A DNA stretch of 64,000 nucleotides from Escherichia phage vB_Eco_ZCEC15: sequence record PQ871103.1, one strand, 5' to 3'. The position numbers and the translations under genes were made by a program. Shown here piece after piece: positions 7,717 through 55,833 of the stretch (its first letter is position 1; each line of letters starts with the position of its first letter). The notes beneath the pieces are model-generated. The model was not told where the DNA came from, did not search any database, and saw only the letters and a program-made list of their open reading frames with translations.

Positions 7717-7741
7717 ATCCGTATCAGTAGTTGATAGTTGT

Positions 7742-7771
7742 ATAGTACCATAGAAGAACAGGGATGTAAAC
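7742..7771 (-). promoter_or_regulatory. sigma70-type early promoter (TTTACA-17-TACTAT on minus strand)
   Basis: GTTTAC -35 and TACTAT -10 read on minus strand; same module repeated at 50572..50601. Confidence 0.55.
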
Positions 7772-33903: not shown

Positions 33904-33931
33904 TTTGTGTTCCTCCGTAGTTGATAGTTGT

Positions 33932-33960
33932 ATAGTACCACAGAGGAACAGTCTTGTAAA
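33932..33960 (-). promoter_or_regulatory. early promoter module (copy of 7742..7771 type)
   Basis: tatagtacca...tgtaaa on plus strand. Confidence 0.5.
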
Positions 33961-34367: not shown

Positions 34368-35354
34368 TTATTTCAGAAGAGTAACCTCAGCGATTTCTTC
34401 CCAACCGTTTTTGTCGGTCATAATAAAGTCAGCAAGATAAAGAGCAGTACGCAGTGAAACATTGCGTAAACGATTAACATTAACTTTCATCCATGATAAT
34501 GCTTTATAAGTTTCTTCATCAGAAAGACCACGCTTTTGCATCATGTCAGTTGAAAGAATAACATCTTCAACCCTGACCATAATTTCTTCATTAGTGTGAA
34601 CACCCAAATCTAAATAAACCGAGCGGGACACTAATGCTTGTAAATGTGGAGCAAGTTTAGTACCACGGTCTAATTCGCGGTCAATGTCAACGTTTGTGAT
34701 AAAAACAATCGTTCCTTTAAATTCAAACTCACGCTCAATGCCTTTTTCTTCTAAGTAAGAAGACGCAGTGCTCCAGCAGACTTTACGGGTCTCTCCAGTG
34801 TCCAGAGCGGCTTTTAGAAGATTAAGAATGTCCATATCAGAGAAAACATCCACATCATCAATCAAAAGGACAGAATTCTCTTCACGATTATTCCAAAGCT
34901 GCTCATAAAGACCAATACCAGAGATTTTACCATTAATGCTTTTATATTCAATGTATCCAATATCATTTGCTTTATTTAAAGCTTTATCTAAAGAATACGT
35001 TTTACCAATACCTGCTGCACCAGAGATAATCAATGAACGAATATTTCCATTAATAATACCATTCGTCATCATTCCCATAACATTAAATCTTTTATTAATG
35101 CGGGTTTTCATATCTTCATATGATTCTTTAACTTCTTCAACTTTTACACCATCATATGAAATATCTGATTTGTAAACCCAAACACCGCGACGTTTACCGT
35201 CAATTTCAACAAAAACTTTACCATCTCCTTGTGCATCTACCGGAGCATTATCTGGGAACCATTCGCCTAAGAGCTCAAAAGTTCCAGAGATTTCTTTACC
35301 GAAGTAGATACCCTTATTGATAGTTACAGTTTTCATTTTATTCTCCAATTTCAC
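34368..35354 (-). CDS. P-loop NTPase, 328 aa (Walker A GAAGIGKT, Walker B LLIDDVD)
   Basis: Motifs read directly from translation. Confidence 0.65.
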   Translation of the reverse strand: MKLENKMKTVTINKGIYFGKEISGTFELLGEWFPDNAPVDAQGDGKVFVEIDGKRRGVWVYKSDISYDGVKVEEVKESYEDMKTRINKRFNVMGMMTNGIINGNIRSLIISGAAGIGKTYSLDKALNKANDIGYIEYKSINGKISGIGLYEQLWNNREENSVLLIDDVDVFSDMDILNLLKAALDTGETRKVCWSTASSYLEEKGIEREFEFKGTIVFITNVDIDRELDRGTKLAPHLQALVSRSVYLDLGVHTNEEIMVRVEDVILSTDMMQKRGLSDEETYKALSWMKVNVNRLRNVSLRTALYLADFIMTDKNGWEEIAEVTLLK

Positions 35355-35405
35355 ATTTGTTTTGATAGGGTAATAGTATCACACTACTACCCTACTGTAA
35401 ACAAT

Positions 35406-35669
35406 TTATTTTAGTGTTTGCCAAATTTTTACTGCTTCGCGACGAGATACTTCTACAGCTCCAAGTTCTACGGCTTTTTGACGTCGGCGAGCATGTAAGT
35501 CATAATGTTTAATGCGTTTATCTTGAAACCAAGAACGTTTCATTCCTATTGCTTCTGCCATTTCATGGAGCTCTTCAATATCTCCATCAGTGAACATATG
35601 ACAATTTTTAGTTAGATGACCGCGAAGTTTCCATCCATGATTCATTAAAACATCTACGTAAACTGTCAT
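35406..35669 (-). CDS. small protein, 87 aa, DUF4031-like
   Basis: Motif pattern GMKRSWFQ...HYDL...GA resembles the DUF4031 family as I recall it; stop overlaps upstream gene by 4 nt. Confidence 0.5.
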   Translation of the reverse strand: MTVYVDVLMNHGWKLRGHLTKNCHMFTDGDIEELHEMAEAIGMKRSWFQDKRIKHYDLHARRRQKAVELGAVEVSRREAVKIWQTLK

Positions 35670-36859
35670 TGATTCTGCTCCAAATATGTTTCTATAATTT
35701 TCTGAGCGAGATAAACTGCGTTATCTTCAGTTGCATCTTCTAAGAAATTTTCAAAATAAGCTGAAATTTCTTCTGTGTCAATCAACTTTTTTACTTCAAT
35801 TAACGTAGTTTTCATTTTATTCCCCAAATCCGTATCAGTTGATAGTTGTATAGTACCATATCGGTGGTTTTCAAGATAAACCCTCTCAAGGAAGTCATCC
35901 CAGAACCCCATGTCTACTTTTTGCTGCATACCGTTCTTAGAAGCTTCAATGGATGCTGCTTCTACTTGATCGACCACATCTTCCAAAAACTCTTGAACCG
36001 TTTTAAATGGATGTTTACCCAGCTTCACGTCGAGAATAAATGAAGCATCTTGAAGTGGATAGACCAAGTCACCAGTTTTGTAAATTTCCAATAGTTGGAG
36101 TCCACCACGACAAGCATGACTCAGGGCTTTCCAGTCAATGCCCTCATTCGCCTCAGCCTTACGAGCACGTTCGCCGTATTCAGCATCTAATTTGTTCAGT
36201 GACTGCTTAAGCTCAATAAGAGAAAGCGTTGTCTGATATTTACGACCCAACACCGTATAGAATGTTTGTGGGCCTGTTTTCTCATGATTATGGAATACCC
36301 ATTCACAGAATTCGTTTTCTGGAAGACGATGCTTAATATCTTCTACCTTAGTCCGACGTAAACGATCTGGAATGCCTTCTTGATAATCAACCCATTGTTC
36401 AGGAATCTGGTTAACAATTTCCAATACACCACGCAGTGCAGCCAATCGAGAACCCTTAACGCCGTATTTAGAAGCTTGCTTGCGAACATATCCTAAATAG
36501 GATTTCATGTTAGTCGTATAAAAACGAGAACGATTGTCTTGAACAAATTTCCATACATCAGGCAAATCAGATTTAACTACCAGTTCAGGTGGAGTGTGGA
36601 GCATATCCAATGCTACAGTTTCACCATCTGCTGCTAATTTAAAGAAATACTTAAGACTGTATAGTTCATGGTCAATATCATCTTTAGTGTTTTTAGATGA
36701 TGTGCTGTTAGTGTTTTTACTCATATGCTCTTTAACATTTCCGATAAGAATATCACGAGCAGGAGGAACAAAGATTTCTTTAAAATCTACATCAGATTCT
36801 GGAGTAGAAGTTCCATAAAGATGACTACCAAAATAGCTTTTCATTACTGTTTTCATCAT
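35666..36859 (-). CDS. Pol-beta-superfamily nucleotidyltransferase-like protein, 397 aa
   Basis: N-terminal GS-x8-DVD motif (YFGSHLYGTSTPESDVDF) typical of minimal nucleotidyltransferases. Confidence 0.6.
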   Translation of the reverse strand: MMKTVMKSYFGSHLYGTSTPESDVDFKEIFVPPARDILIGNVKEHMSKNTNSTSSKNTKDDIDHELYSLKYFFKLAADGETVALDMLHTPPELVVKSDLPDVWKFVQDNRSRFYTTNMKSYLGYVRKQASKYGVKGSRLAALRGVLEIVNQIPEQWVDYQEGIPDRLRRTKVEDIKHRLPENEFCEWVFHNHEKTGPQTFYTVLGRKYQTTLSLIELKQSLNKLDAEYGERARKAEANEGIDWKALSHACRGGLQLLEIYKTGDLVYPLQDASFILDVKLGKHPFKTVQEFLEDVVDQVEAASIEASKNGMQQKVDMGFWDDFLERVYLENHRYGTIQLSTDTDLGNKMKTTLIEVKKLIDTEEISAYFENFLEDATEDNAVYLAQKIIETYLEQNQ

Positions 36860-37341
36860 TCAGCCTTATATTCAATAACAGGACATACTTTAGCTTTATG
36901 CGCTTTTAAAAATTCGACGATAATAGATTTCTTGGGTTGAATAGGCTCAAGTCCATTTTTGATTCGTTCTTCGTTTTGTACAATGAGCTCAATTTCTTTA
37001 TTGAGCTTTCGGTCGTTATATTTGTCTAACAACCAGGAAGGACCAATTACCGCCCCGACAGCAATAAGAACCATGACCGATAATGCTAAAATGCCTATAC
37101 CAATTGAAGCTGGAATTAATGTCCATAGACTACTAAAGACAAAGAATTTAATTAAAATTTCTTGGCCAATTATTGCAGCACCTGTTAAAGTTGCAAATCC
37201 AACAATTGAAACCGCTAATACCGGGAGAAACGTTTTCCAAAAATAAGCACATAACGTTTTTGGACGATTCCATGTGCTGTTAAATGCCGAGTAAATTTTA
37301 AAGTGCCAAGAGTTTTCATTAATAATCATAATTATAATCAT
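36856..37341 (-). CDS. membrane protein, 161 aa
   Basis: Three to four hydrophobic helices. Confidence 0.6.
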   Translation of the reverse strand: MIIIMIINENSWHFKIYSAFNSTWNRPKTLCAYFWKTFLPVLAVSIVGFATLTGAAIIGQEILIKFFVFSSLWTLIPASIGIGILALSVMVLIAVGAVIGPSWLLDKYNDRKLNKEIELIVQNEERIKNGLEPIQPKKSIIVEFLKAHKAKVCPVIEYKAE

Positions 37342-38604: not shown

Positions 38605-38767
38605 TACATGCTCCTTTGAATAATATCAATAATGTTGTTCACCAGATTATAAGTAAACATTGGGTAATTATATTGAATCATCACATACACAACAAACAAA
38701 ACTTTCATTCTCTTCTCCTTGGAAGTTGACAAGATTACTATATCATAACCTTGCCAACTTGTAAACC

Positions 38768-50263: not shown

Positions 50264-50581
50264 TTATTTCATATTATTGAAATATTCTTCTGCGATTTCG
50301 TCGTTATCATGGTAAACTTTAGAAGACAGTTTAACATAACCTTCTGCTGTGAACATATTAATCACAACTTTTACAGTATACCACTGACCGTCTTCATTAC
50401 CCATTACTGCGTAAGTTTCAAACATCGGATGATCAGGACCGATAACTTTAATATCATTCACTGTACGACCGAAATCTTCTGAAACGCATTTCATAAAGAA
50501 GTTGAACAGTTCGCCGTAATTATCCATTTCATTCTCCAAGTTGTTTTTCTGTATCAGTAGTTGATAGTTGTATAGTACCAT
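50264..50581 (-). CDS. hypothetical protein (likely 87 aa from Met19 at about 50527)
   Basis: GGAG SD precedes internal ATG; promoter module upstream. Confidence 0.5.
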   Translation of the reverse strand: MVLYNYQLLIQKNNLENEMDNYGELFNFFMKCVSEDFGRTVNDIKVIGPDHPMFETYAVMGNEDGQWYTVKVVINMFTAEGYVKLSSKVYHDNDEIAEEYFNNMK

Positions 50582-50601
50582 GGAAGAACAGGGATGTAAA
50601 C
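50572..50601 (-). promoter_or_regulatory. early promoter (duplicate of 7742..7771)
   Basis: About 80 bp near-identical to 7717..7800. Confidence 0.55.
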
Positions 50602-51612: not shown

Positions 51613-51689
<77 letters not shown>

Positions 51690-51692
51690 TAA

Positions 51693-52358
51693 TTAAAATT
51701 TCATTTTTCTACCTTTAAACCATCCTTCTGGAATTGGGTCAGTTTTCTTAATACGTTTAGAAACTTTTTCATCTAATGAATGAATCCACATCATACCAAA
51801 TTGGGAATTCTTTTCACCTTGTTGGTGTTTATTTTTGGCGTGAGATTCTTTCATTTTATTAATAGTTTCAGGAGTATGATGCTTATTTAAAAATCTGCTA
51901 TTATTTAAAAATTTTTCCCTGTATTCAGGAGTTGACCACAAACGTTTAAATACATTTGAACCATGTTTACGATATTTTTCTTGAAGTAAAATATCATTTT
52001 TAAAACGTGACTTAAACGATTTAGCTCCTTTTAAACTAGCGTCTTTCTTCTGATTTAGCATCTCAGGAATATTTATATGGTCCCATCCACCTTCACCACC
52101 AAGTTTTAAATTATACACATCTGGTCTATTTAAAAACTCTTCTGTGACAATATTTTTCTCGGCTTCAAGCATAGATTCTTTATCATCAAAATACTCTAAT
52201 ATTTCTTTAGAGAAATTTTCTATACCATACTTGTCTTGGGCTCTTTTTAATAATTTACCAGAACCCATATATCCATCATCTAAATTTTCGGTAGAATGCA
52301 CACCAATATAAATTTTATTATTAATTTTATTTGTTATTTTATAAGTGTAATGGAACAT
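51693..52358 (-). CDS. segB: GIY-YIG homing endonuclease SegB, 221 aa
   Basis: YTYKITNKINNKIYIGVHS motif; sits between tRNA subclusters as in T4. Confidence 0.85.
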   Translation of the reverse strand: MFHYTYKITNKINNKIYIGVHSTENLDDGYMGSGKLLKRAQDKYGIENFSKEILEYFDDKESMLEAEKNIVTEEFLNRPDVYNLKLGGEGGWDHINIPEMLNQKKDASLKGAKSFKSRFKNDILLQEKYRKHGSNVFKRLWSTPEYREKFLNNSRFLNKHHTPETINKMKESHAKNKHQQGEKNSQFGMMWIHSLDEKVSKRIKKTDPIPEGWFKGRKMKF

Positions 52359-52418
52359 AAATATCTCCTATTTCTAAGAGTATTTATGTTCCCAAAATAT
52401 GGCCCTGGGTGGAATTGA

Positions 52419-52490
52419 ACCACCATCTGGCGATTATGAGTCGCTTGCTTGAACCTTCCAGCTACAGGGCCTTGGTGCTGATTGACGGAA
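52419..52490 (-). tRNA. tRNA-Ile (anticodon CAU, lysidine type), CCA not encoded
   Basis: Acceptor GGCCCTG/CAGGGCC, T-arm GGTTCAATTCC, anticodon loop CTCATAA. Confidence 0.7.
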
Positions 52491-52491
52491 T

Positions 52492-52567
52492 CGAACCGCC
52501 GACGTCCTCATTACAAGTGAGGTGCTCTACCTACTGAGCTAAATCAGCGAAATTACGGAGGCGATAG
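52492..52567 (-). tRNA. tRNA-Thr (anticodon UGU), CCA encoded
   Basis: Acceptor GCTGATT/AATCAGC, anticodon loop CTTGTAA. Confidence 0.8.
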
Positions 52568-52574
52568 GATTTGA

Positions 52575-52661
52575 ACCTATGAGTCGCCGGAGCGACTGCC
52601 GGTTTTCAAGACCGGTGCATTAAACCACTCTGCCACGCCTCCAGTCTCCATACAAGGATTT
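52575..52661 (-). tRNA. tRNA-Ser (anticodon UGA), long variable arm
   Basis: Acceptor GGAGGCG/CGCCTCC, anticodon loop CTTGAAA. Confidence 0.8.
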
Positions 52662-52663
52662 GA

Positions 52664-52821
<158 letters not shown>

Positions 52822-52826
52822 GGACT

Positions 52827-52913
52827 CGAACCCACAAGGAAATCATTCCGCAGCATTTTAAGTGCTGTGCCTTTACCAATTTGACCATTCTCGCGCTGGG
52901 AATAAAGGACTCG
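52827..52913 (-). tRNA. tRNA-Leu (anticodon UAA), long variable arm, CCA encoded
   Basis: Acceptor GCGAGAA/TTCTCGC, anticodon loop CTTAAAA. Confidence 0.8.
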
Positions 52914-52914
52914 A

Positions 52915-52987
52915 ACCTTTGCATCCTGGAATCAAAATCCAGTGCCTTACCAACTTGGCTAATTCCCAATTATTAACAAAGGCTCTT
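52915..52987 (-). tRNA. tRNA-Gln (anticodon UUG)
   Basis: Acceptor TGGGAAT/ATTCCCA, anticodon loop TTTTGAT. Confidence 0.8.
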
Positions 52988-54464: not shown

Positions 54465-54495
54465 AGTAAATAGGGTAATAGTATCACTACCCTAT
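54465..54495 (-). promoter_or_regulatory. promoter-early stem-loop (PeSL-like) module: dyad AGGGTA/TACCCT around -10, GTTTAC -35
   Basis: Inverted repeat flanking atagtatcac core; compare 54763 and 55093. Confidence 0.5.
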
Positions 54496-54507
54496 CTAAA
54501 AGTAAAC

Positions 54508-54762: not shown

Positions 54763-54795
54763 TTTTGATAGGGTAATAGTATCACAACTAAAACC
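54763..54795 (-). promoter_or_regulatory. PeSL-like module: dyad ATAGGGT/ACCCTAT around -10
   Basis: As above with different arm sequence. Confidence 0.5.
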
Positions 54796-54817
54796 CTATG
54801 TAAACAACTTTGTGAAA

Positions 54818-55092: not shown

Positions 55093-55125
55093 ATTTTGAT
55101 GAGGTAATAGTATCACTACCTCATC
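55093..55125 (-). promoter_or_regulatory. PeSL-like module: dyad GATGAGGTA/TACCTCATC around -10
   Basis: 9-bp arms flanking atagtatcac; GTTTAC -35 at about 55122-55127. Confidence 0.5.
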
Positions 55126-55148
55126 AGTATGTAAACAACTTTGTGAAA

Positions 55149-55833
<685 letters not shown>

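Follow-up and report, generated by a model that had tools for sequence, protein, structure and literature searches.

Gene content in the hyperplastic regions of T4-type phages is known to vary through promoter-early stem-loops (PeSLs), composite elements made of a stem-loop terminator, an early promoter, a Shine-Dalgarno sequence (SD) and an ATG, that mediate the gain and loss of gene cassettes (PMC2839356; PMC4122927). In the T4/PST pair their consensus is TTTACW-N17-TAYWAT (PMC4122927), and degraded 'half' PeSLs have been reported beside indels in the same pair (PMC4122927; PMC2839356). The early promoters of T4 are of the UP/-35/TGn/-10 type; a sigma-70 promoter generally requires two of the three sigma-dependent elements, and TGn/-10 promoters are independent of the -35 and insensitive to AsiA (PMC2988021).

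We have analyzed a stretch of 64,000 nucleotides of Escherichia phage vB_Eco_ZCEC15 (PQ871103.1), referred to here as the window. On sequence similarity the window is that of a Tequatrovirus (T4-like phage), and the region matches 728 phage records, nearly all of them Tequatrovirus, with a best identity of 97%. An ORF of 397 aa in this window carries part of an early promoter translated as protein. Very probably this came about by a private in-frame deletion of 84–85 nt that fused nrdC.11, coding for a nucleotidyltransferase (NTase), with the gene after it, so that the downstream half of the early promoter now lies within the ORF. The parts of the locus are as follows.

35666..36859, minus strand: fused ORF, 397 aa, made of the nrdC.11-type nucleotidyltransferase, a translated promoter/leader remnant and a 49-aa gene
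35861..36859, minus strand: NTase-derived part of the fused ORF, 333 codons from the first ATG, last residues ...LENHR
35860..35861, minus strand: deletion junction, CACCGA/TATGG, placed by the alignments and by the BLAST break at 35861/35860
35816..35860, minus strand: promoter/5'-leader remnant, 45 nt, read as the 15-aa linker YGTIQLSTDTDLGNK
35850..35858, minus strand: surviving extended -10 TGGTACTAT (TGn + TACTAT), orthologous to that of T4 P(nrdC.10)
35822-35825, minus strand: Shine-Dalgarno GGGG, 6 nt 5' of the ATG of the 49-aa gene
35666..35815, minus strand: 49-aa gene (phrog_6888), C-terminal part of the fusion, with its own SD and ATG retained
35406..35669, minus strand: DUF4031 gene, 87 aa; its start ATG and the TGA that ends the fused ORF overlap (ATGA)

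The codons of the fused ORF add up as 333 + 15 + 49 = 397, with the linker YGTIQLSTDTDLGNK followed by MKTTLIEV..., and across the junction the minus strand reads ...GAAAACCACCGA and then TATGGTACTATACAACTATCAACTGATACGGATTTGGGGAATAAAATGAAAACT... The NTase ORF runs on into the 49-aa gene because the 45-nt leader is free of stop codons in that frame; one other frame is open as well and the third is closed. Residues 7-135 match PF10127 (RlaP) with 42.7 bits, the Pfam gathering threshold being 23, and in the profile search phrog_388 (NTase) covers residues 1-337 and phrog_6888 residues 349-397, the C-terminus of the ORF spanning positions 2-50 of the 50 of this last profile. The fused ORF lies in this way end to end on both families, and its halves are separate CDSs in the annotated relatives. 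The described proteins to compare with are the RlaP/COG3541 Pol-beta-type nucleotidyltransferases (PF10127), among them T4 NrdC.11. Over its N-terminal 333 residues the ORF shares 95% identity with the T2/T4-type protein, but here the C-terminal SYYK is missing and 64 unrelated residues have been added. An earlier, sequence-only reading of this DNA had taken the last 49 residues as a C-terminal peptide of the NTase with a possible nested start. They do have an SD and an ATG of their own, but they correspond to an independent conserved gene (phrog_6888), found by tblastn at full length and standing alone in 164 phage records, and present as its own CDS in the loci inspected. AlphaFold2 run on the fusion with an alignment of 17 sequences gave a model of very low quality, with a mean pLDDT of 48 and a pTM of 0.37.

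The best 120 of the 2882 NTase homologues are 324–343 aa long and cover 82–84% of the query, and all 16 aligned homologues sampled from these 120 terminate in ...NH(R/N)-xYY-x. The same reading had proposed to check whether the C-termini of the homologues diverge at the module, and they do, ending four residues after the point where it starts (...ENHR, then SYYK and the stop). Since the homologues stop there, the C-terminal 64 residues are not ancestral NTase sequence; the NTase part in the window lacks, by the alignments, both the stop codon and the conserved SYYK with which the protein ends in the relatives.

We aligned the locus with those of UGKSEcP2, UTI-E2, SsoM_113, T4 and GCA_039690175.1. 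In these five the NTase ends in ...ENHR SYYK and a stop, followed by GGGAGCCTTCGGGCTCCC-T6, AAAATTTTTTCACAAAAC, GTTTAC, a spacer and TATGGTACTAT; the window joins CCGA straight to TATGG. The stretch missing from the window, AGTTATTATAAATGA-TAGGGAGCCTTCGGGCTCCCTTTTTTATTTC-AAAATTTTTTCACAAAAC-GGTTTAC-AAGCATAAAGCTT, measures 84 nt in UGKSEcP2 and SsoM_113 and 85 nt in UTI-E2 and GCA_039690175.1, which have one extra A in the A-run. It takes in the 3' end of the NTase gene (last four codons and stop), an intrinsic terminator and, of the promoter, the UP element, the -35 GTTTAC and the greater part of the spacer. The GGGAGCCTTCGGGCTCCC-T6 terminator, found in T4, UGKSEcP2, UTI-E2, SsoM_113 and GCA_039690175.1, consists of an 8-bp GC stem, a UUCG loop and U6 (RNA fold of -17.7 kcal/mol, z -4.9), and on the minus strand of the window no terminator-like site was called between 33800 and 38000. 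The gene order in UGKSEcP2, UTI-E2 and SsoM_113 is a 1011-nt NTase CDS, an intergenic region of ~115 nt, a 150-nt CDS (49 aa), a 264-nt CDS (87 aa, DUF4031) and nrdC.10. The closest relative found at the locus, the GCA_039690175.1 contig, encodes an identical 87-aa neighbour and is 99.2–99.5% identical over the aligned flanks, and it retains the complete 85-nt segment.

None of the collections searched contained the junction. All 40 of the top-ranked phage records listed match it only as two pieces, ~84 nt apart, exact scans of IMG/VR, the JGI metagenomes and the GTDB genomes did not find it, and an exact look-up of the fusion protein found it not on record. These comparisons argue for a recent, private, in-frame deletion that joined two neighbouring genes. 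The fusion is known from one assembly of the genome, and such uniqueness would also be expected of an assembly or sequencing artefact, in which the phage has the intact terminator/promoter segment and the assembly dropped the 84–85 nt, for instance at the GC-rich hairpin or on account of the promoter repeats. The stretch concerned does contain a very stable hairpin and borders a repeat present in four copies. Against this, CACCGA at the left break point belongs to unique coding sequence outside the repeat, for which reason a collapse of the repeat would not give this junction; base-calling errors do not cleanly drop 84–85 nt, and the flanks are otherwise colinear with those of the relatives. 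We consider an artefact improbable.

The promoter module itself had been described by the sequence-only reading as a 48-mer inside the 397-aa ORF, translated in frame, and it is real: it lies on the minus strand at 35810-35857, and none of 100 shuffles gave a match. Its description as an early promoter has to be narrowed. The ORF copy has the TGn, the -10, the leader, the SD and the ATG, that is, what lies from TATGG onward, but the UP element and the -35 GTTTAC are missing. The TGn is TGG at 35856-35858, and the -10, TACTAT at 35850-35855, fits TAYWAT with A at position 2 and T at position 6 and agrees with TATAAT at four of six positions. A -35 of the type (G)TTTAC(W) 17 nt 5' of the -10 is absent from the ORF copy, where the closest look-alike is TTTATC with a spacer of 19 nt, and at -40 to -60 there is NTase coding sequence instead of an A/T-rich UP element. 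The promoter scan did not call the ORF copy, though it picked up those at 33960 and 35401, which are intact. The SD and the start codon are in place at the 3' end of the module (GGGG-6 nt-ATG), and directly 5' of the promoter the window has no stem-loop terminator. With these parts the remnant would formally qualify as a TGn/-10 promoter, at best much weaker than the intact element, and we regard the module as a degraded 'half PeSL'. The SD of the 49-aa gene is GGGG (35822-35825), versus GGAG in the leader of T4 P(nrdC.10) and in the imm.1 and e.8 copies; GGAG is the target motif of the RegB endoribonuclease, and the GGGG found here could alter the sensitivity of the mRNA to RegB.

The module has relatives within the window, which we list with the next early promoter.

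7730..7770, minus strand: intact sister promoter, at the T4 imm.1 position
33920..33960, minus strand: intact sister promoter, nrdC.8
50560..50600, minus strand: intact sister promoter, at the e.8 position
7730-7750, 33920-33940, 35838-35858 and 50560-50580, minus strand: copies of the 21-nt core TGGTACTATACAACTATCAAC
35373..35401, minus strand: intact next early promoter, TTTACA-17-TACTAT with TG, driving nrdC.10

The 21-nt core TGGTACTATACAACTATCAAC has exactly four copies in the window, all of them on the minus strand, with 0 expected by chance. The three sister copies are complete, with an A/T-rich upstream block (in two of them AAAATTTTTTCACAAAAC), GTTTAC, a 17-nt spacer (from TTTACA), TGG-TACTAT, leader, SD and ATG. 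The near-identity that had been claimed between the ORF module and these three holds for the core in all four, but it is near-complete through the ATG only with the 7750 copy, with one 3-nt indel and two mismatches; the 50580 and 33940 copies have in common with the ORF module only the first ~22–30 nt and the SD/ATG region. T4 carries the 21-mer with 21/21 identity 5' of imm.1, nrdC.8, nrdC.10 and e.8, orthologous to the four copies of the window, the ORF copy being the orthologue of the nrdC.10 early promoter, which is colinear and directly follows nrdC.11. There the order is nrdC.11 ending in ...ENHRSYYK and a stop, GGGAGCCTTCGGGCTCCCTTTTTT, AAAATTTTTTCACAAAAC, GGTTTAC, the spacer and TATGGTACTATACAACTATCAACTGATACGGATTTGGAGAATAAAATGAAAACT. 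Beyond the 21/21 core, T4 P(nrdC.10) (~55.36 kb) is colinear with the ORF copy in the leader, the SD region and ATGAAAACT, and it occupies the same place after nrdC.11. They differ by one leader base (GGAG in T4, GGGG here) and, above all, in that here the UP, the -35 GTTTAC and most of the spacer have been deleted and the module is found inside an ORF. The module precedes the 49-aa gene and not nrdC.10 because this lineage has a cassette of 479 nt that is absent from T4.

A second sub-family of early promoters, sharing GTGATACTATTACC(C/T)..., is found on the minus strand at 35373-35401, 54776-54804, 54478-54506 and 55107-55135, and in it an inverted repeat (e.g., TAGGGTA...TACCCTA) brackets the -10 and the start site. 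The promoters at 1419, 38765 and 50262 have similar hairpins across the -10.

By sequence comparison the module is the downstream half of the PeSL (terminator and early promoter) found after nrdC.11 in T4 and its relatives, and a recent deletion of 84–85 nt very probably took the last four NTase codons, the stop, the terminator, the UP, the -35 GTTTAC and most of the spacer. Both reading frames were left in register, with read-through via the linker YGTIQLSTDTDLGNK into the formerly independent 49-aa gene. How the deletion was produced is less apparent from the sequence. Read from the alignments, the two break points have no shared base or microhomology, and in a DNA fold of the ancestral segment no stem base coincides with them. 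What the fold shows is the terminator hairpin, the 12-nt palindrome ATAAAGCTTTAT located at the right break point, and a 9/10 inverted repeat, CTTGAAAACC/GGTTTACAAG, near both ends of the segment. The deletion is not between two PeSLs, and thus the mini-circle excision mechanism does not apply. PeSL–PeSL exchange was considered as a deletion route and rejected, with the left break point in unique coding sequence and no base shared between the break points.

Several consequences might be expected from such a deletion. Early transcripts from upstream should now continue past nrdC.11, because the terminator is gone, and would run unterminated from nrdC.11 through the 49-aa gene to the DUF4031 gene. 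The nearest canonical promoters upstream are at 38765 and 39577, and nrdC.10 retains its own promoter. Of the strong UP/-35/TGn/-10 promoter, no more than a weak TGn/-10 promoter, independent of the -35, would be left. Since the SD (GGGG) and the ATG are intact, the phage may continue to make free 49-aa protein beside the fusion, and a nested start for the 49-aa gene is plausible as a secondary feature. The overlap of the DUF4031 ATG with the TGA of the fused ORF positions this gene for translational coupling, which would now be to a long ORF. The change was probably neutral or mildly deleterious. A lesion of this kind is plausible because the nrdC.11 region is dispensable in T4, from which the nrdC.11-mobD.3 block can be deleted (PMC9825161).

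We give little probability to the fusion being more than a lesion, either as a 'Rosetta-stone' event or through a TGn/-10 remnant that retimes expression. In the first case the RlaP-type NTase NrdC.11 would work with the phrog_6888/DUF4031 cassette that often adjoins it, with a joint role in, for example, an RNA-repair or counter-defence pathway. In the second the remnant would be insensitive to AsiA, TGn/-10 promoters being independent of the -35, and the timing of 49-aa and DUF4031 expression could shift while the fusion protein is also made.

It is more doubtful still that the locus is an evolved nested gene, with an internal promoter and ribosome-binding site kept so that a long NTase and a short 49-aa product are both made. 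T4 gene 49/49' is the annotated precedent for an internal start with its own promoter, and both have a promoter-like element with SD and ATG in frame inside a longer ORF; here too the TGn/-10, the SD and the ATG are all intact and the fusion is in frame. However, 49' is conserved and has been shown experimentally, while the present case appears from its sequence to be a private and recent accident. The arrangement was found in no other genome: the 120 best protein homologues reach at most 343 aa, the junction is absent elsewhere, and two genes with a terminator between them are found in the 99.2–99.5% identical relative and in every other relative examined (the five aligned loci, the 40 listed junction matches and the 120 best protein homologues). 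Besides, an in-frame fusion would result from any deletion in the suitable length class, to which one in three belong, and the conserved NTase C-terminus SYYK is gone.

The small deletion, as we read it, falls at a site where larger changes of gene content are evident. The window and T4 differ there by the 479-nt cassette, which comprises the 49-aa phrog_6888 gene, the DUF4031 gene and the second early promoter at 35401-35373, and is bounded by a direct repeat.

35807..35827, minus strand: direct repeat 1, TTGGGGAATAAAATGAAAACT (SD, ATG and first codons), left boundary of the 49-aa + 87-aa cassette
35328..35348, minus strand: direct repeat 2, TTGGAGAATAAAATGAAAACT, start of nrdC.10, right boundary of the cassette

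The repeat, TTGG(G/A)GAATAAAATGAAAACT, has 21 nt with 20 of the 21 positions identical, and the comparison of 35328-35827 of the window (minus strand) with T4 55320-55434 shows that TTGGRGAATAAAATGAAAACT spans the SD, the ATG and the two codons that follow. The cassette difference has the look of a textbook indel mediated by the ribosome-binding site or PeSL. Another phage, Tequatrovirus LF73P3, has 708 nt where the window has none: its insert (1856-2548 of the LF73P3 locus, corresponding to the window junction 35860/35861) carries an early promoter (GTTTAC...TATAAT), an ORF of 161 aa without a known function and, as a second terminator, GGGGACCTCTAAGGTCCCC-T6. Close relatives thus show at least three cassette states, those of T4, UGKSEcP2 and LF73P3, which documents the nrdC.11/nrdC.10 site as a multi-state cassette hot spot. 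That homologous exchange between near-identical promoter modules grafted a foreign C-terminus on the NTase is extremely unlikely, since, even with four near-identical modules and a hot spot with the 479-nt cassette missing in T4 and the extra 161-aa ORF cassette in LF73P3, the two flanks of the junction already lie next to each other in the relatives, with nothing foreign added, the left break point is outside any repeat and has no homology to the right one, and a donor locus carrying CACCGATATGG would be needed. From the suggestion of the sequence-only reading that recombination at a cassette boundary created the NTase C-terminus, what stands is a new C-terminus at a cassette boundary; the event appears to be a private 84–85-nt deletion without homology at the junction.

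Placed beside the published PeSLs (Arbiol et al., 2010, PMC2839356; Comeau et al., 2014, PMC4122927), the element of the relatives has the full layout of stem-loop terminator, AT-rich region, TTTACW-N17-TAYWAT, SD and start codon. It is located in a hyperplastic region, at indel and cassette boundaries between close relatives, whose cassettes differ exactly at the element. The differences concern the window: in the published degraded PeSLs the -10 is lost and the -35, the stem-loop or both are retained, whereas here the -10, the SD and the ATG are retained and the stem-loop and the -35 are lost, and an in-frame gene fusion has been created. The deletion in the window would provide a clean natural example of PeSL decay in T4-like phages, with promoter and leader turned into coding sequence. 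As a further instance of a known element and a known type of event it is not surprising, and the finding opens no long-standing question. For annotation, the 397-aa 'nucleotidyltransferase' would be a chimera, to be labelled as nrdC.11 fused to the phrog_6888 gene via intergenic PeSL deletion, and its C-terminal 64 residues should be kept out of the annotation of other NTases.

Some other features of the window were observed in the comparison with T4 and the closest relative. The ORF list starts nrdC.10 (minus strand) at GTG 35354 (328 aa), and colinearity with T4 (MKTVTINKG) together with an SD, GGAG, places the start at ATG 35336 (322 aa). Upstream of the NTase, the gene of a predicted membrane protein of 161 aa at 36945-37297 gave no alignment to GCA_039690175.1 (blastn, E-value limit 1e-20), and both flanks align to this contig, which is otherwise 99% identical; this points to a local replacement. 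In the place of this membrane protein gene, T4 has the homing endonuclease gene mobD. Finally, eight tRNA genes (Arg, Met/Ile-CAT, Thr, Ser, Pro, Gly, Leu and Gln) are located on the minus strand at 51613-52968, as a cluster colinear with the tRNA region of T4; a gap of ~710 nt, at the place of T4 segB, separates tRNA-Arg from the next tRNA.
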